Below are positions 7,878 to 27,113 of a DNA stretch of 31,535 nt, piece by piece. Within the stretch, counting starts at the first letter, position 1. Each line of letters begins with the position of its first letter. The translations under genes and the position numbers were made by a program. The notes beneath the pieces are model-generated. The model was given only the letters and a program-made list of their open reading frames with translations, had not been told where the DNA came from and made no database searches. This stretch comes from a virus. The stretch is taken from IMG/VR virus record IMGVR_UViG_3300009152_000019; one strand, 5' to 3'.

Positions 7878-8114
7878 ATGAAAAACATTAAACAACTTTC
7901 AAAGCTAACTAATCAAGCAATCGACTTATTAGATTTAGCAGAACAATCAAATCAAAAGTACGATTCAATGTGCAGGTATAATGTAGAAATTGCTGCACCT
8001 AATGGATTCAAGCCAAAATCAGATTTAGTAATCGAGTTTCAAATGGTTGTTACCAAGAGAATTATGGCTAGTTATTTCAGAGTTATTAACGAGATTAAAG
8101 CATTTGAGTTATGA
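7878..8114 (+). CDS. Hypothetical early protein.
   Basis: It is the first ORF after the early promoter, and its stop overlaps the next ATG (ATGA). Confidence 0.65.
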   Translation: MKNIKQLSKLTNQAIDLLDLAEQSNQKYDSMCRYNVEIAAPNGFKPKSDLVIEFQMVVTKRIMASYFRVINEIKAFEL

Positions 8115-8251
8115 ACGATACAATCAAAGAACTAGAAGAAATCAAAGCCTATTACATTCAAGAAGGCGATTGGGATTCAGCGAATCAAATTACACTAGCA
8201 ATAGATGTTGCAGAAAATTATTATTTTACAATTAAACAACAAACAAGATGA
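8111..8251 (+). CDS. Small hypothetical protein, 46 aa (MNDTIKELEEIKAYYIQEGDWDSANQITLAIDVAENYYFTIKQQTR).
   Basis: I translated this by hand; it is below the ORF-track size cutoff. ATGA overlaps at both ends tie it into the early operon. Confidence 0.5.
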   Translation: MNDTIKELEEIKAYYIQEGDWDSANQITLAIDVAENYYFTIKQQTR

Positions 8252-8400
8252 ACGAGAGAATAAAAGAATTAGAACACCAGTTATACTTATCAGATTTCAG
8301 AATCAAAAAGTATAATCGAAACAACGAATTTGATGCTGCTGAAAGAGAAGAATACGAAAGAATGTTAATACAGAATGAACTTAAAAAACTAAAGAAATGA
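8248..8400 (+). CDS. Small hypothetical coiled-coil protein, 50 aa (MNERIKELEHQLYLSDFRIKKYNRNNEFDAAEREEYERMLIQNELKKLKK).
   Basis: I translated this by hand. ATGA overlaps link it to both neighbours, which fills a gap otherwise covered only by implausible ORFs. Confidence 0.5.
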   Translation: MNERIKELEHQLYLSDFRIKKYNRNNEFDAAEREEYERMLIQNELKKLKK

Positions 8401-8408
8401 GAGCAGAA
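8385..8408 (+). repeat. 24-bp direct repeat, copy 1 (aaaactaaagaaatgagagcagaa), at the 5' boundary of the methyltransferase gene.
   Basis: It is an exact match to 9199..9222 and contains a stop/start ATGA junction plus the codons M-R-A-E. Confidence 0.95.
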
Positions 8409-9200
8409 GAAAAAAAAGATTATAGTAATTTTATAAAAGATAATAATAATTATAAACCACAATTACACAATGATCATTTTCAAAATTATAAACGTTATAA
8501 TATTCCGAAAGCACAATTAATAATAGCAGATATACCTTATAATTTAGGTAATAATGCTTATGCTTCTAATCCAGCTTGGTATAAAGATGGTGATAACAAA
8601 AATGGTGAAAGCGAATATGCAAATAAAGAATTTTTTGATACTGATAAAGATTTTAGAATAACTGAATTTTTGCATTTTTGTTCAACAATGATGAAGCCTG
8701 AACCTAAAGAAACTGGAAAAGCACCGTGTATGATTGTGTTTTGTGCATTTGAGCAACAGTTTGAATTAATTGAAAAAGCCAAGAAATACGGTTTAAATAA
8801 GTATATTAATTTAGTATTTCGCAAAAACTTTTCGGCTCAAGTTCTTAAAGCAAATATGCGTGTAGTTGGTAATTGTGAATATGCTATTTTACTTTATAGA
8901 GATAAATTGCCAAAATTTAATAATAATGGTAAAATGGTTTTTAATTGTTTGGATTGGGTAAAAGATAAAAATATTGAAAAAGTACATCCAACACAAAAGC
9001 CAGTTAATTTATTAGAACAATTAATAGAAATTTTCACAGATAAAGGAGATGTAGTAATCGACCCTTGTGCAGGAAGTGGAAGTTCGCTTTTAGCAGCAGT
9101 TCAATGCGAAAGACAAGCATATGGATTTGAGATAAAAAAAGATTTTTTTAAATTAGCAACTGAAAAAACTTTAAAAAATATACAAAAAAAACTATTTTAA
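8397..9200 (+). CDS. DNA methyltransferase, beta-class amino-methyltransferase (N6-adenine or N4-cytosine).
   Basis: Motif IV DIPY (IADIPYNLG) is near the N-terminus. Motif I VIDPCAGSGSS is near the C-terminus. This order is typical of the N6_N4_Mtase family. Confidence 0.85.
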   Translation: MRAEEKKDYSNFIKDNNNYKPQLHNDHFQNYKRYNIPKAQLIIADIPYNLGNNAYASNPAWYKDGDNKNGESEYANKEFFDTDKDFRITEFLHFCSTMMKPEPKETGKAPCMIVFCAFEQQFELIEKAKKYGLNKYINLVFRKNFSAQVLKANMRVVGNCEYAILLYRDKLPKFNNNGKMVFNCLDWVKDKNIEKVHPTQKPVNLLEQLIEIFTDKGDVVIDPCAGSGSSLLAAVQCERQAYGFEIKKDFFKLATEKTLKNIQKKLF

Positions 9201-12303: not shown

Positions 12304-12312
12304 TTATATTTG
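12282..12312 (+). promoter_or_regulatory. Promoter with TTTG (12282..12285), N19, then TATATTTG (12305..12312).
   Basis: It is a full bipartite Bacteroidetes-type promoter directly after the stop at 12303. Confidence 0.55.
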
Positions 12313-12322
12313 TAAAAGTTTC

Positions 12323-12408
12323 CGTCTGACAATATAGGAACTTAAGAAATTATTGCCCTTTTTAATGAAATTGAAGTCAGACGCAACGGATTTATTAAGG
12401 GCTTTTTT
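12323..12408 (+). promoter_or_regulatory. Structured 5' leader with a promoter-proximal terminator upstream of the TS-family gene.
   Basis: cgtctgac (12323..12330) is perfectly complementary to gtcagacg (12376..12383). gccctt (12355..12360) pairs with aagggc (12397..12402), with extended AT pairs, and is followed by T6 (12403..12408). The gene ATG is at 12430. Confidence 0.5.
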
Positions 12409-12429
12409 ATTTATTTAATTTTTATTATT

Positions 12430-13062
12430 ATGAACAAGTATTACAAGTTGCTGAACAAAATTTTAAAACAAGGAAAATTCCAAACAGCTAAAAAAAATGG
12501 GTCAATTTATTTAATAAACCAGACTTTAAGTTTTTCTAAAAATGAATTAGAAAAATTATTTTTAGAGCACAAAGTGGCAAAGAACAAGTTAAGTAAAGAA
12601 CTAGATTTATATATGGAGGGGGAGACTTTAATTAAAGAATATAATAATAAAGACATTTTTTGGTGGGATTATTGTGCCCCTAAGTTAATAAATTCTTATC
12701 CTACTTATTTCAAGAAGTTACCTGAGTTAATAGAAAAAATTAATTCTTTAAGGCCTTCAAAAAATTATGTACTATTTATAGGGGAAACAGGTGTAGAAAC
12801 AAATCAGTTGCCTTGCTTAAGTTTAATACAATTTCAAAATTTAGAGGGAAAAATTAACTTAACCGTATATCAACGAAGTGCAGATTGCTGTTTAGGTTTG
12901 CCTAGCGACTTATTCCAAATTTATTTAGTTAGTCAATTAATTAATATGCCTTTAAATAATATTACTTTTTTTATTGGTAATGCTCATATTTATGAAAACA
13001 ATATTGAAGAAACAAAAAAATTACTAAAAGGAGAATTATATAAATTTAATCTTAATGTATAA
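12430..13062 (+). CDS. Thymidylate synthase-family enzyme, short form. It has Asp at the pyrimidine-specificity position and is a candidate dCMP C5-modifying enzyme (hydroxymethylase or methylase).
   Basis: Conserved TS motifs are KELDLYMEG (Glu58 region), QLPC (catalytic Cys, codon 12814..12816), YQRSAD, LGLP and GNAHIY. The residue aligned with E. coli Asn177 is Asp (LGLPSD, codon 12907..12909). Confidence 0.7.
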   Translation: MNKYYKLLNKILKQGKFQTAKKNGSIYLINQTLSFSKNELEKLFLEHKVAKNKLSKELDLYMEGETLIKEYNNKDIFWWDYCAPKLINSYPTYFKKLPELIEKINSLRPSKNYVLFIGETGVETNQLPCLSLIQFQNLEGKINLTVYQRSADCCLGLPSDLFQIYLVSQLINMPLNNITFFIGNAHIYENNIEETKKLLKGELYKFNLNV

Positions 13063-13481
13063 TGAGAACGTATTTAGCGAAAATTAGAATACCTGAAGAA
13101 ATTAAACTGGAGTCTACAGGCTTTATAGGAGAAAAAATATTTGAATTATGGTTCTTGGCTACCTATCAAGGAGAGCAATTATTTAAACAAAAAGCGGATA
13201 GAGACTACCAAAAAATTGATTTTTCAGATGAGAAAGGTTTTACTTACCAAATAAAAACTACTAAAGCAAAAACATTTACGTTTAATTGCTGTTTAGAACG
13301 TATTACAGAGCACTTAAAGGCAGAAGTATACGTTTGTATTCAATTAGAAAATAAGTATGCTTATATTGAGTATTTTAAAAGTAAGCAAGAAATTATAAAT
13401 AAACTAAAAAAATCATTTGTAACAGAGAAAAGTTGTTTTTTGTACTCAAGTGATTTATTACAAAAAGAATTATTTATATAA
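13062..13481 (+). CDS. Hypothetical protein, possibly with a PD-(D/E)XK nuclease fold.
   Basis: It is coupled to the TS-family gene by a TAATG overlap. The segment GEKIFE...DYQKIDFSDEKGFTYQIKT could supply an E / D / (Q)xK motif, but the evidence is weak. Confidence 0.3.
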   Translation: MRTYLAKIRIPEEIKLESTGFIGEKIFELWFLATYQGEQLFKQKADRDYQKIDFSDEKGFTYQIKTTKAKTFTFNCCLERITEHLKAEVYVCIQLENKYAYIEYFKSKQEIINKLKKSFVTEKSCFLYSSDLLQKELFI

Positions 13482-13486
13482 ATATT

Positions 13487-13912
13487 ATGGCAGAAGATAA
13501 AAAAGGATTTATCCTATACGCAGACCAGAATGCTCTGTTTAATCAATTATCTAACGAAAAGGCGGGTGAACTAATAAAGTTCATCTTTGCCTACGTTAAT
13601 GATGAAAATCCAATTAGTGAAGATATTATTATTAATTTAGCATTTACACCAATCAAACAACAATTAAAACGTGATTTAGTTAAGTTCTTAGAAATCAAGT
13701 GTAAACGTAGTGAAGCAGGTAAGAAAGGAATGGCGAAAAGATGGTCATCTATAACAAATGATAACAAATCATTACAAACGATAACAAACATAACTGTTAA
13801 TGATAATGTAAATGATAATGTAATAAATACAAAAGCGGATGTAATTTCTACCGACCAATGGGGAAATGAAATTGATGTAAATGGCTTTCACATAAAAACA
13901 AAAAAGAAATGA
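13487..13912 (+). CDS. Putative replication initiator or replisome-organiser-like protein.
   Basis: The N-terminal region KKGFILYADQNALFNQLSNEKAGELIKFIFAYVNDENP...KRSEAGKKGMAKRW resembles phage DnaD/replisome-organiser-type N-terminal domains. The gene contains iterons and is coupled to the helicase gene. Confidence 0.4.
   Translation: MAEDKKGFILYADQNALFNQLSNEKAGELIKFIFAYVNDENPISEDIIINLAFTPIKQQLKRDLVKFLEIKCKRSEAGKKGMAKRWSSITNDNKSLQTITNITVNDNVNDNVINTKADVISTDQWGNEIDVNGFHIKTKKK
13751..13822. repeat. Iteron-like array, a candidate replication origin.
   Basis: ATAACAAA occurs at 13751, 13761 and 13781. ATTACAAA is at 13771 and ATAACTGT at 13790, so spacing is 9-10 bp. A tandem 12-mer AATGATAATGTA x2 follows at 13799..13822. 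Confidence 0.55.
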
Positions 13913-14757
13913 TAGTTAACCACAGAAGTAGTGATGAATTTTTAGAATTGTCTAGGTTAGATAAAATACCTTTGGGTTTAGGATTAGGTATTGATTTAGA
14001 TGTTAACTTAAGATTCAAACGTGCTTCGTTCAATATTGTGTTAGGACACGCAAATGTAGGTAAGACGTATTGGGTTTTATGGTACTTGCTTTGTTTGGCT
14101 AAAAAGCATAATCTTAAACATCTAATTTATTCAGCCGAAAATAGTGTTAACGGATTGAAACGCAATTTGATTGAATTATACGCTGGATGCAAGATTAAAG
14201 ATATGTTACCTAAACAACTAGACAACTGCAAAAACTTTATTGAATCGCATTTTGATTTTATAGATGCACAAAAGGCTTGGACTATAGAAGAATTTATGAA
14301 AGAAGTTCAAGTGTTAGGTGATTATGATACTTTAATGATTGACCCTCACAATTCATTCTTAAAGCCAAAGTTTGCTAATGCACACGATTTGGATTATGAA
14401 ATGGCTACTAAACTTCGATTGTTTGCTAAAAAAACGAATACTTCAATTTATATGTGTATTCACGCAGCAACAGAAGCATTAAGAAAAACGCACAAAGCAG
14501 GTGATTATGAAGGTATGCCACAAGCACCAAATATGGCAGATGCTGAAGGTGGTGGTAAGTGGGGAAATCGTGCAGATGATTTTGTTGTTATTCATAGATA
14601 TCCAATGCACACTAACTTTTGGATGTTTACAGAAGTTCACATTAAGAAAGTTAAAGAAACTGAAACTGGTGGTAAGCCTACATTCGCTGCTGAGCCAGTT
14701 ATGTTTAAATTACAGAACGGAACACAATTTTTAAACGAAGGAAAAAACGTATTATGA
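13909..14757 (+). CDS. DnaB-like (RecA-fold) replicative helicase domain protein.
   Basis: Walker A is GHANVGKT, preceded by IPLGLGLGIDLD (a DnaB-like LD...G motif). Walker B-like is TLMIDPHNSF. Confidence 0.6.
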   Translation: MIVNHRSSDEFLELSRLDKIPLGLGLGIDLDVNLRFKRASFNIVLGHANVGKTYWVLWYLLCLAKKHNLKHLIYSAENSVNGLKRNLIELYAGCKIKDMLPKQLDNCKNFIESHFDFIDAQKAWTIEEFMKEVQVLGDYDTLMIDPHNSFLKPKFANAHDLDYEMATKLRLFAKKTNTSIYMCIHAATEALRKTHKAGDYEGMPQAPNMADAEGGGKWGNRADDFVVIHRYPMHTNFWMFTEVHIKKVKETETGGKPTFAAEPVMFKLQNGTQFLNEGKNVL

Positions 14758-15020
14758 AAGATACAGATATAGCAACTGCAAGACTAAACATAAAGATAAG
14801 CATCAATAGATTGCTTTTTAGAAGTGCATTAGAACGTGTAAGCGAAGAAAAACAAAAAGTGATACTACGTGAAGCAAATGATTTGAACTATAGCTTAGAA
14901 GTCTTTAAAATGCTTCAAGACGATAATACTGCATTAACACGAACAAATGATGCTTTAAGATTACAAATACTATATTTGAAGAAGGAACTAATTAAACAAC
15001 AAGAAGATGAAATATTGTAA
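14754..15020 (+). CDS. Hypothetical coiled-coil protein.
   Basis: An 88-aa ORF coupled at both ends. Confidence 0.6.
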   Translation: MKDTDIATARLNIKISINRLLFRSALERVSEEKQKVILREANDLNYSLEVFKMLQDDNTALTRTNDALRLQILYLKKELIKQQEDEIL

Positions 15021-15534
15021 GGATTGTAAAGAATCATTTGAGCCTAAACAAAAGTTTAATTCTACTTTATCAACTAATCGTTGCGAAGTATGTTTAAAAA
15101 CTGCACAAGCATTGAAGAATCTTGCCAGTATAAAGAAAGAAAAGAAGATTAAGCAGAAAGAAGATATGTTAACGTTGCAAGACTACTTGAAGATGACACA
15201 GCAGGTGTTTAATTCTTGGATTCGCAAACGTGATGCAGGATTGAATTGTATATCTTGCGACAAGCCTTGTAAAAAAGAGAACGCAGGACACTACTTTTCA
15301 AGTGGAGGACACGCAAATGTGAGATTTGATGAGAATAACGTACATCTTCAATGTGAATATTGTAACACTTTTTTACACGGAAACTTAATTTTGTACGGTG
15401 TTAATTTAGAAAAGAAAATAGGAAAAGACGAATTCATTATTTTGCGTGAAAAAGCATATTTAACAAAAAAATACACGAAGATTGAATTAAAAGAGTTACT
15501 TTTGAAATATAAAGCAAAGTTAAAAGATGTATAA
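15007..15534 (+). CDS. ninG: NinG-like recombination protein.
   Basis: There is an N-terminal CxxC...CxxC, and WIRKRDAGLNCISCDKPCKKENAGHYFSSGGHANVRFDENNVHLQCEYCN matches the lambda NinG family pattern. Confidence 0.75.
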   Translation: MKYCKDCKESFEPKQKFNSTLSTNRCEVCLKTAQALKNLASIKKEKKIKQKEDMLTLQDYLKMTQQVFNSWIRKRDAGLNCISCDKPCKKENAGHYFSSGGHANVRFDENNVHLQCEYCNTFLHGNLILYGVNLEKKIGKDEFIILREKAYLTKKYTKIELKELLLKYKAKLKDV

Positions 15535-15542
15535 CGTTAAAA

Positions 15543-15617
15543 CTATACTGCGGTTGCCTATGCGGTTTAGTAGATTCGGCAACTGCTGTATAGTGATTGT
15601 TACCAGTAGTGCTTTTT
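15543..15617 (+). terminator. Long hairpin overlapping a second terminator-like hairpin, which could act as an attenuator.
   Basis: ctatactgcggttgcc (15543..15558) pairs with ggcaactgctgtatag (15578..15593) at 15 of 16 positions, including one G-U. Alternatively actgctg (15582..15588) pairs with cagtagt (15604..15610), followed by gcTTTTT. Confidence 0.5.
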
Positions 15618-15642
15618 ATTTATAAACTTAAAAATTAATTAT

Positions 15643-15876
15643 ATGTCAAACATTAAAAAAATAACAGATAAAGCAGATAAAGCTAAAGACTTACAAAGTC
15701 TTATTGAAGTGTGGAATGAAGTTGCTAATGACAAATATTCGTATTCGTTAGGTCAAATAAGAGTAGCTAATAAGCATATACAAGAACTTGCTTTGAAAGT
15801 TGAAGGGTGTGATTTAGAAAAAGGAAAGTTTTTTTACACACTAAACGAAATGTTGTCAGGTGAGTCGGTTTCGTAG
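15643..15876 (+). CDS. Hypothetical protein.
   Basis: A 77-aa ORF bracketed by 14-bp inverted repeats. Confidence 0.55.
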   Translation: MSNIKKITDKADKAKDLQSLIEVWNEVANDKYSYSLGQIRVANKHIQELALKVEGCDLEKGKFFYTLNEMLSGESVS

Positions 15877-24992: not shown

Positions 24993-27113
24993 ATGGCAGC
25001 ATCACCGATTGAGATTCCTATTAAATTAAATGGCTTAGCAGCTATTAAGGCAGAACTTCGTGAGCTGAAAGGCGACCTTGCAAATGCAACAGACCCAAAA
25101 CAGATGCAGGAACTTGCTATGAGAGCAGGTGAGCTTAAAGACCAACTTGCAGATGCTAATGAACAAGTAGCAGTATTTGCATCAGGTAGTAAGTTTGAGC
25201 AGGTTTCAAATTCATTCGGTTCAATGAAAGATTCTTTGATGTCTTTGGACTTTGAAGAAGCTGCTAGTAAAGCTAAGATGTTTCAGCAAACATTAGGAAG
25301 TATATCACCTGCTACGATTGGAAATAGTATTAAAGGTTTAGTTTCAGTTGTTGGTAGTTTATCTAAAGCCTTCATTCAGTTTGGTATTTCATTACTAGCA
25401 AATCCTATCTTTTTATTAGTTGCTGCGATTGTAGCCATTGTCGCAGTCATTGCTTTGGTGATGAATAAACTCGGAATCTTAAAGCCAATTCTTAATGCAG
25501 TAGGTAAAGTATTCGGTTGGATAGGTGATGCTATTGATATGGTTGTTCAAGCATTCAAAGATTTGTGCGATTGGTTAGGCTTATCTAATAACGCAGCAGA
25601 AGATGCAGCAGATGCACAAGCAGCAGCAGCCGAAAAAACTGCAGCAGCATACGAAGAAAAGAGTGCAGCAGTAGTAGCAGGTTTCGATAGAGAGATTGAA
25701 ATGGCTAAACTTGATGGTCAGAATACTGTTTATATGGAAAAGCAAAAACAGTACTGGCTTTTAAAAACTGCAGCTGCAAGACTAGAGGCAATTAAACAAA
25801 AAATGATTGCTGCGAGATTGAGTGGTGATTTAGATGAGGAGGAGATTTTAGCTTTAAGAAAATCATATAACGAGCAAAGAGAAGTAGTCAAAGATTCTAT
25901 GCATCAGATTGAGGTGATTGATAAGACCGAAGCTAATCGTAAAAAGGAAGATGCTAAAAAACAATCAGATGAAAGTTCTAAAAATGCTAAATCTAATGCA
26001 GATAAACAACGAGAAATTAATGCTAAAAAAATTGAAGCAGAAAAGAAATATCAAGCAGACAGATTAGCAGCTGCTCGAATGTATCAAGACTTGGATATTC
26101 AGTTAATGGATGAAGGAGTTCAAAAAGAATTGAAAGTATCTCAGATTGCTTACAATAGATTGATTGAAGATACACAAGCTAAGGTTGCTAAGACGAAACA
26201 AGAACAAGAAGAAAAGTTAAAGCTAATTGAAATGTATGGTCTTTTAGCGGGGGATGCAAGAGATAAGATAAATCAAAAAGAAGCTGAAAAAGAAAAAGAA
26301 AAGAAGGCAGCAGATGCAGCTAAAGAATTAGAGCAAATAGCTTTGTTAAAATCAATGAAAGATGCTGCAAGTCAAACTGCTAAAGACAAAGAAATAGCAG
26401 ATGTAAAAGCAAAGAGTGAAGCAGATTTAATAGCTTTAGGAAGTAGTGCAGATGCAAAGGTATTTTTAGCTGAGCAAACTGCTGAAAGAATTGCTGAGAT
26501 TGATGCTAAATATGCTGAGATTGAAAGAGCAAATCATTTTAAACTATTAAGTGAGAAAGCAGATATTGCGTCTAAGTATGCACAAAGTGTAAACTCTTTA
26601 GCTGAAGGAATGTTTGCAGTATCTAATAGCTATGGTAAGCAAGATGAGAAGTCAAAAGAAGAAAGAGCAAAAAAACAGTTCTATATTCAAAAAGCAATGA
26701 ATCTAGGAATGGCTACAATAGATGGGTATAAAGCAATTACTTCTTTCTTGTCAACAAATCCGTTAACTGTTTTAGGTTTACCAAATCCTGGTGCAATAGC
26801 AGGACTTGTTGCTACTTCAGCAATGGCTGCAGGTAATATCTTAAAGATTGCTTCTGCGAGATATGGTGGTAAAGGAACACCAACAACAACTGCATCACCA
26901 ACAGCAGCAGGAGGTGGTGGAGGTGATACTTCTACACAAGCAGCCACTCCTAGCGTTACTTTAAACGGTGCTAATAACAACGCAAATACATTTGGAGCAA
27001 ACGGACAACAGAATCAAGGTGGTCAAATGATAGTCAAGGCAGTAGTAGTAGAATCTGATATTACTTCTGTGCAAAACAAGATGAATAAAATACAACAATC
27101 AGCAACGTTATGA
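24993..27113 (+). CDS. Tape-measure-like protein.
   Basis: It is 706 aa. It has an N-terminal coiled coil, the hydrophobic block ANPIFLLVAAIVAIVAVIALVMN, a long A/K/E-rich coiled coil, a second hydrophobic segment, and a Gly/Asn/Gln-rich C-terminus. Confidence 0.55.
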   Translation: MAASPIEIPIKLNGLAAIKAELRELKGDLANATDPKQMQELAMRAGELKDQLADANEQVAVFASGSKFEQVSNSFGSMKDSLMSLDFEEAASKAKMFQQTLGSISPATIGNSIKGLVSVVGSLSKAFIQFGISLLANPIFLLVAAIVAIVAVIALVMNKLGILKPILNAVGKVFGWIGDAIDMVVQAFKDLCDWLGLSNNAAEDAADAQAAAAEKTAAAYEEKSAAVVAGFDREIEMAKLDGQNTVYMEKQKQYWLLKTAAARLEAIKQKMIAARLSGDLDEEEILALRKSYNEQREVVKDSMHQIEVIDKTEANRKKEDAKKQSDESSKNAKSNADKQREINAKKIEAEKKYQADRLAAARMYQDLDIQLMDEGVQKELKVSQIAYNRLIEDTQAKVAKTKQEQEEKLKLIEMYGLLAGDARDKINQKEAEKEKEKKAADAAKELEQIALLKSMKDAASQTAKDKEIADVKAKSEADLIALGSSADAKVFLAEQTAERIAEIDAKYAEIERANHFKLLSEKADIASKYAQSVNSLAEGMFAVSNSYGKQDEKSKEERAKKQFYIQKAMNLGMATIDGYKAITSFLSTNPLTVLGLPNPGAIAGLVATSAMAAGNILKIASARYGGKGTPTTTASPTAAGGGGGDTSTQAATPSVTLNGANNNANTFGANGQQNQGGQMIVKAVVVESDITSVQNKMNKIQQSATL

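Follow-up and report, generated by a model that had tools for sequence, protein, structure and literature searches.

A short thymidylate synthase relative, a candidate cytosine modifier, coupled to a predicted nuclease in a small marine phage

Phage thymidylate synthases that carry aspartate in place of asparagine at position 177 (Escherichia coli ThyA numbering) are already known as an entry point to cytosine modification, a theme tied to anti-restriction. Here, we describe such an enzyme, together with the nuclease-like protein encoded directly behind it, in the IMG/VR virus record IMGVR_UViG_3300009152_000019; the whole 31,535-nt stretch is referred to below as the window. The first gene (12430..13062, + strand) encodes a compact, 210-amino-acid (aa) enzyme of the thymidylate synthase family, which we call the short synthase, and the second (13062..13481, + strand) encodes a 139-aa protein. 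Both open reading frames (ORFs) lie where an earlier, sequence-only reading of this DNA had placed them. Fold, residue signature, family-wide conservation, and gene linkage were computed here.

The substitution N177D in the E. coli enzyme, or N229D in that of Lactobacillus casei, turns thymidylate synthase into a deoxycytidine monophosphate (dCMP) methylase, and phage contigs whose DNA has modified cytosine show an enrichment of Asp177 synthases (PMC8670742). Leu143, three residues before the catalytic cysteine (Cys-3), goes with a methyl product and Asp or Glu at this position with a hydroxymethyl product, and D169N is the mark of 5-hydroxy-dCMP (5ho-dCMP) synthases (PMC13326640). In thymidylate synthase, the active site is sealed by a C-terminal tail that the dCMP hydroxymethylase of phage T4 (gp42) is without (PMC6400193). 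Ser vs. Ala at position 167 sets the choice of deoxyribo- vs. ribonucleotide substrates, and the cytidine monophosphate (CMP) hydroxymethylase MilA has Lys at the Arg126' position (PMC5175136).

Residue signature of the short synthase

The short synthase carries aspartate (Asp160, codon GAC, 12907..12909, + strand) at the pyrimidine-specificity position, which corresponds to E. coli ThyA Asn177 and T4 gp42 Asp179. The sequence-only reading had proposed this switch from Asn and had set a proper alignment as its check, and every method tried gave Asp rather than Asn. Against the Elizabethkingia thymidylate synthase 6auj, phmmer pairs YQRSADCCLGLPSD with YQRSADVFLGVPFN, which puts Asp160 on the Asn177 equivalent. 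MAFFT, run with E. coli ThyA and T4 gp42 sequences taken from their genome records, sets Asp160 on Asn177 and Asp179, and hhalign, in which the short-family profile was compared with a synthase profile whose first row is E. coli ThyA and with a T4 gp42-like profile, again sets it on the Asn177 position. The switch is genuine, as Asp is found in all 120 of the closest database homologues, the sample behind all conservation counts given here for the short synthase. Moreover, a profile search of 1.84 billion representative proteins found Asp177 in nearly all of the best full-length matches.

The family assignment itself is firm. Pfam matches the protein to PF00303 (Thymidylat_synt) with an E value of 4.1e-20 (72.5 bits vs. 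a cut-off of 24.3), PHROG 160 matches at 9e-28, and hhalign aligns the short family to the ThyA-headed synthase profile at 9e-39. An AlphaFold2 (AF2) model built on 24 homologues has a mean predicted local distance difference test score of 90.8, and Foldseek matches it to solved ThyA structures with template modelling (TM) scores of 0.80-0.87 when normalised to the query. The motifs KELDLYMEG, QLPC, YQRSAD, and GNAHIY, listed in the sequence-only reading, are all present, and the fold, the catalytic Cys, and the equivalents of Glu58, Arg166-Ser167-x-Asp169, and His207-x-Tyr209 place the protein in the thymidylate synthase superfamily. This assignment of fold and homology is not a product of chance.

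The catalytic residues of E. coli ThyA are kept: Glu58 as Glu57; the nucleophile Cys146 as Cys129, in Gln126-Leu127-Pro128-Cys129 (12805..12816, + strand) on both hhalign profiles; Arg166, Ser167, and Asp169 as Arg149, Ser150, and Asp152; and His207 and Tyr209 as His186 and Tyr188. Other positions have changed. Arg21 is replaced by Lys21, as in T4 gp42 (Lys28), and the phosphate-binding pair Arg126'/Arg127' by Lys111, as in MilA (Lys133'), and Asn112 (codons AAA AAT, 12760..12765, + strand, by MAFFT and hhalign). The earlier claim that Arg21 and Arg126/127 lack equivalents thus holds for Asn112, but at the other two positions a basic residue stays. Leu143 has become Gln126, which occupies the Cys-3 position of T4 gp42 Asp145, and Leu130, Tyr81, and Asn184 stand for His147, Trp83, and Asp205. 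Eleven residues (Cys129, Glu57, Arg149, Asp152, Asp160, His186, Tyr188, Lys111, Asn112, Gln126, and Asn184) are invariant across the sample, and Lys21, Ser150, and Leu130 differ in only 1-4 of the 120 homologues. Because the catalytic residues are conserved family-wide, the enzyme is therefore under selection and is not a relic or a decaying thyA. The best explanation of this pattern is that the 210-aa protein is an active thymidylate-synthase-fold enzyme of a large phage and metagenomic clade.

As the sequence-only reading had seen, the protein is markedly short, with 54 aa less than ThyA, and the loss falls mostly on the C-terminal tail. Only 22 residues follow the H-x-Y motif vs. 55 in E. 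coli ThyA. The same stretch measures 41-55 residues (mostly 45 or 52) in Leu143/Asp177 synthases of at least 250 aa, 28 in T4, and mostly 8 in a marine T4-like group.

Compared with the described classes, the short synthase is not a housekeeping ThyA, in line with what had been suspected. It scores at most 60.6 bits against the NCBIfam thymidylate synthase equivalogs (the cut-off of the best match is 325, and cut-offs span 108-576), has Asp160 for Asn177, is without Leu143 and Arg126/127, and has Gln126, Tyr81, and a 22-aa stub in place of the canonical folate-sealing set. With T4 gp42, it shares the fold, the catalytic Cys, Glu, Arg-Ser-x-Asp, and His-x-Tyr, Asp at position 177, Lys at Arg21, the absence of the tail, and a phage origin. 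However, T4 gp42 is a remote match (hhalign E 2e-9, ~18% identity), and the short synthase differs from it in having Gln for the essential Asp or Glu at Cys-3, Lys-Asn for Arg-Arg at 126/127, and a genome without the partner deoxycytidine triphosphatase (dCTPase), deoxynucleoside monophosphate (dNMP) kinase, and glucosyltransferase. The 5-methyl-dCMP (5m-dCMP) synthases of the Xp12 type (Leu143/Asp177) are nearest by profile comparison, since the ThyA-like profile matched at 9e-39 is mostly of this kind; they share Asp177 and Asp169 and occupy the same place in the same gene module of related marine phages. By contrast, they retain Leu143 and Arg126/127, and their tail is mostly 45-52 aa long, so that of their published signature the short family retains Asp177 and neither Leu143 nor the tail.

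The remaining classes fit less well. In the flavin-dependent 5ho-dCMP synthases of the RB69 gp48 type position 169 is Asn, and here Asp152 is invariant. The CMP hydroxymethylases MilA and BcmA share Asp at the Asn177 position and Lys at Arg126' with the short synthase, but MilA is a bacterial enzyme of antibiotic biosynthesis, not a phage one. Its Ala at the Ser167 position lets ribose in, and it has Asp at Cys-3; the short family has Ser and Gln at these two positions. Lys111 with Ser150 is the combination of the dCMP-preferring MilA mutant A176S. CMP, which had been put forward as a possible substrate, is therefore less likely, as Ser150 (Ser167) is kept (PMC5175136). The broader proposal of a hydroxymethylase or methylase is only partly borne out, as the enzyme carries the full residue signature of neither class (Asp or Glu at Cys-3 with Ser-x-Tyr in T4-type hydroxymethylases, Leu143 plus tail in methylases). 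Judged by its residues, the short clade is a distinct subfamily that fits no characterised class, whether the product is thymidine monophosphate (dTMP), 5m-dCMP, 5-hydroxymethyl-dCMP (5hm-dCMP), 5ho-dCMP, or hydroxymethyl-CMP. Literature searches found no tested member of this clade or of the nuclease family described next.

The coupled nuclease-like protein and its gene module

The two genes are joined by a TAATG overlap (13060..13064, + strand), in which the final A of the TAA stop codon (13060-13062) is also the first base of the ATG (13062-13064). This upholds the earlier suggestion of translational coupling, and related loci show a similar arrangement, the nuclease gene overlapping the gene upstream or starting very close to its end. 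The 139-aa protein was modelled with AF2 and compared by Foldseek, and its top PDB matches are all PD-(D/E)XK proteins: NhoI, Eco15I-Ntd, Hjc, PvuII, and I-Ssp6803I. Matches in BFVD include phage proteins annotated as restriction endonucleases. Seven residues (E24, D46, D53, Q63, K65, Q94, and E103) are invariant in the family. In the model, E24 lies in the first long helix (residues 19-34), D53 just before the second core strand (54-56), and Q63-x-K65 in the third (61-67), which together outline a putative catalytic motif Asp53 ... Gln63-Ile64-Lys65 (13218..13256, + strand). The weak PD-(D/E)XK pattern reported from the sequence alone thus gains a matching predicted fold and a complete D...QxK motif, which place the protein in this superfamily.

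The motif resembles that of the BisI family, which has a (W/A)D plus Q(V/I)K catalytic variant and a helix Glu (PMC11347163). Further marks of that family are an (H/R)(V/I/T/M) motif in the methyl pocket and cutting at modified GCNGC sites. BisI enzymes such as NhoI and Eco15I are, like the 139-aa protein, small single-domain PD-(D/E)XK proteins with xD, Q(I/V)K, and helix Glu, and they are its best PDB fold matches. They differ in showing no sequence similarity to it, in superposing on it at a TM score of only ~0.5, and in having an alpha0 dimerisation helix that its model is without. BisI enzymes also serve cellular defence, whereas the 139-aa family is phage-only and linked to modification genes. 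We therefore describe the protein as a predicted PD-QxK nuclease and do not call it a BisI member.

Pfam gives only sub-threshold matches to domains of unknown function, and PHROGs only weak ones, to families of unknown function. There are 78 homologues, all ~139 aa long and at least 49% identical, many of them on ~30-35 kb contigs. A tblastn search of 50,697 deposited phage records did not find the family, and among 185,579 species genomes it occurred on two short contigs of metagenome-assembled genomes only. It is a phage-only, uncharacterised family.

Gene linkage was counted in 80 IMG/VR loci with a gene for the 139-aa protein, all from one phage group with genomes of ~30-35 kb. A MazG/PRA-PH-like gene lies immediately upstream of the nuclease gene in 78 of these, and a synthase homologue lies upstream in 78 of 80, the other two contigs ending before that point. 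Every linked full-length synthase has both Asp169 and Asp177, but four types can be told apart at Cys-3. Asp is found in 40 loci (at most 222 aa, likely T4 gp42-like), Leu in 31 (at least 250 aa, with tail, likely methylase-like), Arg in four (242-248 aa, with Asp177), and Gln, the 210-aa short family, in two loci plus the window. In the four loci of the Arg type (L021, L022, L032, and L072), the synthase sits 1-2 kb upstream of MazG and the nuclease. The module of this phage group is thus an Asp177-type synthase, a MazG-like deoxynucleoside triphosphate (dNTP) pyrophosphatase, and, last, the nuclease. Because four synthase types occur with the same nuclease, the nuclease therefore stays while the modification chemistry changes. 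It is also better conserved than the adjacent helicase: identity is 53-69% once the two nearest relatives of the window are set aside, vs. 31-45% for the helicase where a homologue was detected.

A short synthase directly before the nuclease, without MazG, occurs only in the window and these two relatives (L014 and L015). Gene order beyond the nuclease is most like that of the window in L036, L038, and L042-L047, which also have its next gene, for a 141-aa protein. These loci encode MazG and a Leu143/Asp177 synthase, so the short synthase took the place of a synthase together with MazG. This does not support the earlier idea that both genes arrived as a single acquired cassette: the nuclease belongs to the older synthase-MazG-nuclease module, and the exchange brought in the synthase alone, at the cost of MazG.

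A further variant of the module was seen at L005:4160-6420 and in ~25 other IMG/VR loci (among them L017, L048, L051, and L077), where a pyridoxal phosphate (PLP)-dependent enzyme, PF00291-like with weak matches to threonine dehydratase and cysteine synthase, is encoded directly upstream of the module, which there comprises a T4 gp42-like synthase, MazG, and the nuclease. Together, these genes may form a cluster for hypermodification of 5-hydroxymethylcytosine (5hmC). No MazG, deaminase, or PLP enzyme (PALP, PF00291) was found in the window by tblastn.

Proposed chemistry and competing explanations

On balance, we lean toward a joint reading in which the short synthase modifies dCMP at C5, with 5-hydroxymethyl as the favoured product, and the coupled nuclease distinguishes unmodified from C5-modified DNA. 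Substrate, product, incorporation into DNA, and nuclease specificity are what we infer here. The enzyme would bind a cytosine deoxynucleotide, most likely dCMP, because Asp160 would read the N3/N4 face of the base and Ser150 would shut out ribose. Cys129 would attack C6 of the base, the one-carbon unit would come from methylene-tetrahydrofolate, and the retained Glu57, Asp152, and Tyr90 or Tyr93 would serve its transfer. The exocyclic-methylene intermediate would more likely be quenched by water, giving 5hm-dCMP, than reduced to 5m-dCMP because the folate-sealing tail is absent and a polar Gln126 stands at the Leu143 position. Pfam and PHROGs scans of nearly all larger ORFs in the window found no dCTPase, kinase, or glycosyltransferase, as the sequence-only reading had reported, and no polymerase or deaminase. 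With no phage kinase, dCTPase, or polymerase, host kinases and the host replisome would therefore be needed to carry the product into phage DNA, and cytosine replacement would probably be partial. Published co-expression data show that the product of a related enzyme can enter DNA at a low level even when no phage kinase is present (PMC13326640).

The 139-aa protein, for its part, would be a Mg-dependent PD-QxK nuclease, translationally coupled to the synthase, that tells unmodified DNA from DNA with C5-modified cytosine, for example by degrading unmodified host or competitor DNA and sparing that of the phage. Its persistence across modification chemistries and its conservation favour a role that depends on cytosine being modified rather than on which group is attached, and the simplest such role would be cutting unmodified DNA. 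T4 endonucleases II (DenA) and IV (DenB) degrade unmodified cytosine DNA and spare modified phage DNA, from a phage that also encodes a dCMP-modifying synthase homologue. The likeness would be one of function; the fold of DenA is GIY-YIG.

Several observations weigh against this reading. With no dCTPase, dNMP kinase, or polymerase in the window, full replacement of cytosine is unlikely. By hhalign, the short family is nearer to ThyA-like than to gp42-like synthases, and methanogen-type synthases are also ~200 aa long; TIGR03283 aligns end to end with the short synthase, at 37.9 bits vs. a cut-off of 174.55, and length alone therefore does not exclude reductive methylation. At Cys-3, the Asp or Glu of T4-type hydroxymethylases is an invariant Gln126, and the T4 mutant D145N yields no 5hm-dCMP (PMC6400193). 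The Ser94-x-Tyr96 region reads N88-S89-Y90-P91-T92-Y93, with no clean S-x-Y, and E. coli Tyr94 is paired with Tyr90 by hhalign and with Tyr93 by MAFFT. On the nuclease side, the Foldseek matches are weak (E ~5e-3 and TM scores of only 0.45-0.53, with probabilities of 0.99-1.00), Hjc resolvases score similarly to the BisI-family matches, and no sequence-level family match was found by PDB profile search or in Pfam, NCBIfam, or PADLOC. All 80 linked loci belong to one phage group, so their linkage could be inherited gene order. Lastly, the short synthase gene has decayed in two Nonlabens phages (described below), where it is dispensable.

A serious but rather unlikely alternative is that the short synthase is a dCMP methylase making 5m-dCMP, which would enter phage DNA as 5-methylcytosine (5mC) or be deaminated, by an enzyme of host or phage, to dTMP and on to thymidine triphosphate for an AT-rich genome. 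Phage Xp12 is an example of 5mC in phage DNA. Asp177 by itself makes thymidylate synthase a dCMP methylase (PMC8670742), and the profile comparison puts the short family much nearer to the mostly Leu143/Asp177 ThyA-like synthases than to gp42. A 65%-identical homologue also lies immediately beside a dCMP-deaminase homologue, and published deaminases adjoining Asp177 synthases serve a route from 5m-dC to dT, with five of seven linked synthases tested having made 5m-dCMP. The linked loci whose gene order beyond the nuclease is nearest to the window's (L036, L038, L042, and relatives) have a synthase of the Leu143 type, and so the short enzyme may have taken the place of one with the same function. 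As noted, synthases of the methanogen type are just as short. However, Leu143 is swapped for an invariant Gln, Trp83 is replaced by Tyr, and the tail that seals the site for hydride transfer is absent, whereas all 31 Leu143/Asp177 synthases of related phages keep a tail of 41-55 aa.

Equally doubtful, in our view, is that the 139-aa protein is an Hjc-like resolvase or a flap or end processor that sits beside nucleotide genes by inherited gene order. Archaeal Hjc is among the top fold matches (1gef, E 6e-3; 2wcw, TM 0.44/0.48), the gene lies at the junction with replication genes, with a primosomal-like protein and a DnaB-like helicase after it, and the linked loci all come from one phage group. 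Yet genes for a junction endonuclease (NinG/Rap), an annealase (Erf), and two exonucleases are already present in the window. Moreover, the nuclease lies directly behind MazG or the synthase in 80/80 loci although the synthase type was exchanged at least three times, it is conserved well above the adjacent helicase, and the proteins that match it best in fold are sequence-specific restriction enzymes that share its QxK variant.

We give less credence to a second joint explanation, in which the clade is a self-sufficient modifier with an undescribed product or a deoxycytidine di- or triphosphate substrate and the nuclease is a BisI-fold enzyme with inverted specificity. The remodelled phosphate pocket (Lys21, Lys111, and Asn112) and the open, tail-less site might permit such a product, and either an undescribed product or use of these substrates would explain a lone gene in small phages without kinase, dCTPase, or polymerase. 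The inverted nuclease may then cut unmodified cytosine DNA and be blocked by any C5 substituent.

It is improbable that the 139-aa protein is instead BisI-like in activity, cutting 5mC or 5hmC DNA of competing modified phages or processing the phage's own modified DNA. NhoI and Eco15I-Ntd are its top fold matches, with probabilities of 0.99-1.00, and it shares their size class and their D plus Q(I/V)K plus helix-Glu motif, but the low TM scores, the absence of sequence similarity, and the absence of helix alpha0 from the model speak against it. BisI enzymes cut both 5mC and 5hmC (PMC11347163), which would expose methylase-type and hydroxymethylase-type phages alike to attack on their own DNA. 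Avoidance of GCNGC, which we considered as a sign of self-targeting, was rejected: the site is not avoided in the window, with 52 observed vs. 38.4 ± 5.3 expected. A dense run of 12 GCAGC/GCTGC sites in ~185 bp (25593-25777), inside a 706-aa ORF with a weak tape-measure match, drives this excess and probably reflects a repeated Ala/Ser/Gln-rich coding segment.

Finally, it is most improbable that the short synthase is an ordinary though divergent thymidylate synthase, turning deoxyuridine monophosphate into dTMP beside an unrelated gene: public annotations of its homologues all say thymidylate synthase, the ThyA catalytic core is intact, and extra dTMP would benefit an AT-rich phage, but Asp stands for Asn177 in 120/120, scores fall far below the NCBIfam cut-offs, Leu143, Arg126, Arg127, His147, and the C-terminal tail are all missing, and Asp177 synthases are statistically tied to modified-cytosine contigs (PMC8670742).

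Distribution, genome context, and meaning

The short synthase has thousands of database relatives, and the short clade makes up most matches to the query, with all 120 examined sharing its signature. Many are 211 aa long, 62-75% identical, and from marine metagenomes. Among deposited phages, the closest (54% identity) are Bacteroides phage p00 (Hankyphage) and its relatives, in which the gene is annotated as thymidylate synthase and is followed directly by an N6 DNA methyltransferase. When neighbours were clustered in 42 loci, no conserved partner of the short synthase emerged, the commonest neighbour occurring in 9/42. The short synthase is usually a stand-alone gene in small phages, including Hankyphage and marine Flavobacteriia phages. 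Still, some close homologues (62-65% identity) do have suggestive neighbours: a dCMP-deaminase homologue directly downstream on 53-65 kb contigs (L010-L013), or a PRA-PH/MazG-like gene alongside (L098). Deaminase and PRA-PH domains are published co-occurrences of Asp177 synthases on modified-cytosine contigs. Other contexts include DNA methyltransferases, as in one carrier (L094) with both N6_N4 and C5 methyltransferases nearby, and in some loci nothing related.

The phage of L010/L011 (53-65 kb; ~8001-9095 and 13606-15674), in which a 65%-identical short synthase lies beside a dCMP-deaminase/MafB19-like gene, also encodes a DNA ligase, a T4-type RNA ligase, a Thg1-like enzyme, an HD/AAA_33 protein, and an SNF2 helicase, an unusual combination of nucleic-acid repair and modification genes. 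In the Nonlabens (Persicivirga) phages P12024S and P12024L, the gene survives only as a remnant, a 44-aa ORF that corresponds to the final 46 residues of the short synthase. Compared with window positions 12944-13007, this remnant (P12024S gp54, L002:1362-1496) shows 65% protein identity and 92% nucleotide identity over 64 nt, and it points to a Flavobacteriaceae host range. A 342-aa metagenome protein (P0008), considered as a synthase-nuclease fusion, was rejected, as it is a Hankyphage-like short synthase with a ~130-residue internal duplication, which is probably an assembly or gene-calling artefact.

Besides the replication and recombination genes already mentioned (Erf, exonuclease, DnaB-like helicase, and NinG/Rap), the window encodes a capsid protease, a virion structural protein, a portal, an endolysin, an SbcD-like exonuclease, a terminase, tail proteins, and an N6/N4 methyltransferase. 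The last (N6_N4 DNA methyltransferase, PF01555, E 1.6e-24) lies in the early region at 8397-9200, and the phage may thus combine base methylation with modification at the nucleotide level.

The reported AT-richness of the gene pair is real but weak: GC content is 25.3% for the synthase and 26.4% for the nuclease vs. a gene mean of 32.0% (standard deviation 3.2%), or z = -2.1 and -1.7. The short synthase has the lowest GC content of all window genes, and three other early genes are similarly low. We therefore rejected this dip as proof of recent acquisition. An AT-rich intergenic region of 126 bp (12304..12429, + strand) lies upstream of the synthase gene and holds two interleaved inverted repeats, 12320-12330/12376-12386 (I3) and 12355-12365/12392-12402 (I5), the latter followed by the T-run TTTTTTA. 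Scans for a consensus promoter or terminator near the gene pair found nothing above shuffled expectation. The region may be a terminator or a regulatory boundary at the edge of the swapped segment.

What is new here is this particular enzyme clade and the nuclease family beside it, both uncharacterised: a short relative of thymidylate synthase in a small marine phage that, from its residues, is a candidate cytosine modifier, and a candidate partner that reads the result. Product prediction in this family rests on a few residues (143, 169, and 177) plus the tail, and the short clade breaks that scheme. One carrier of the clade, Hankyphage, is a globally abundant and ubiquitous phage of gut Bacteroides. 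If the enzyme is active, carrier phages would have partly modified DNA that sequencing studies, restriction mapping, and host-range models ignore. The nuclease makes a good candidate for a new reader of DNA modification and might serve as a reagent; inverted specificity, if true, would set it apart as a new class of phage nuclease that degrades host DNA.

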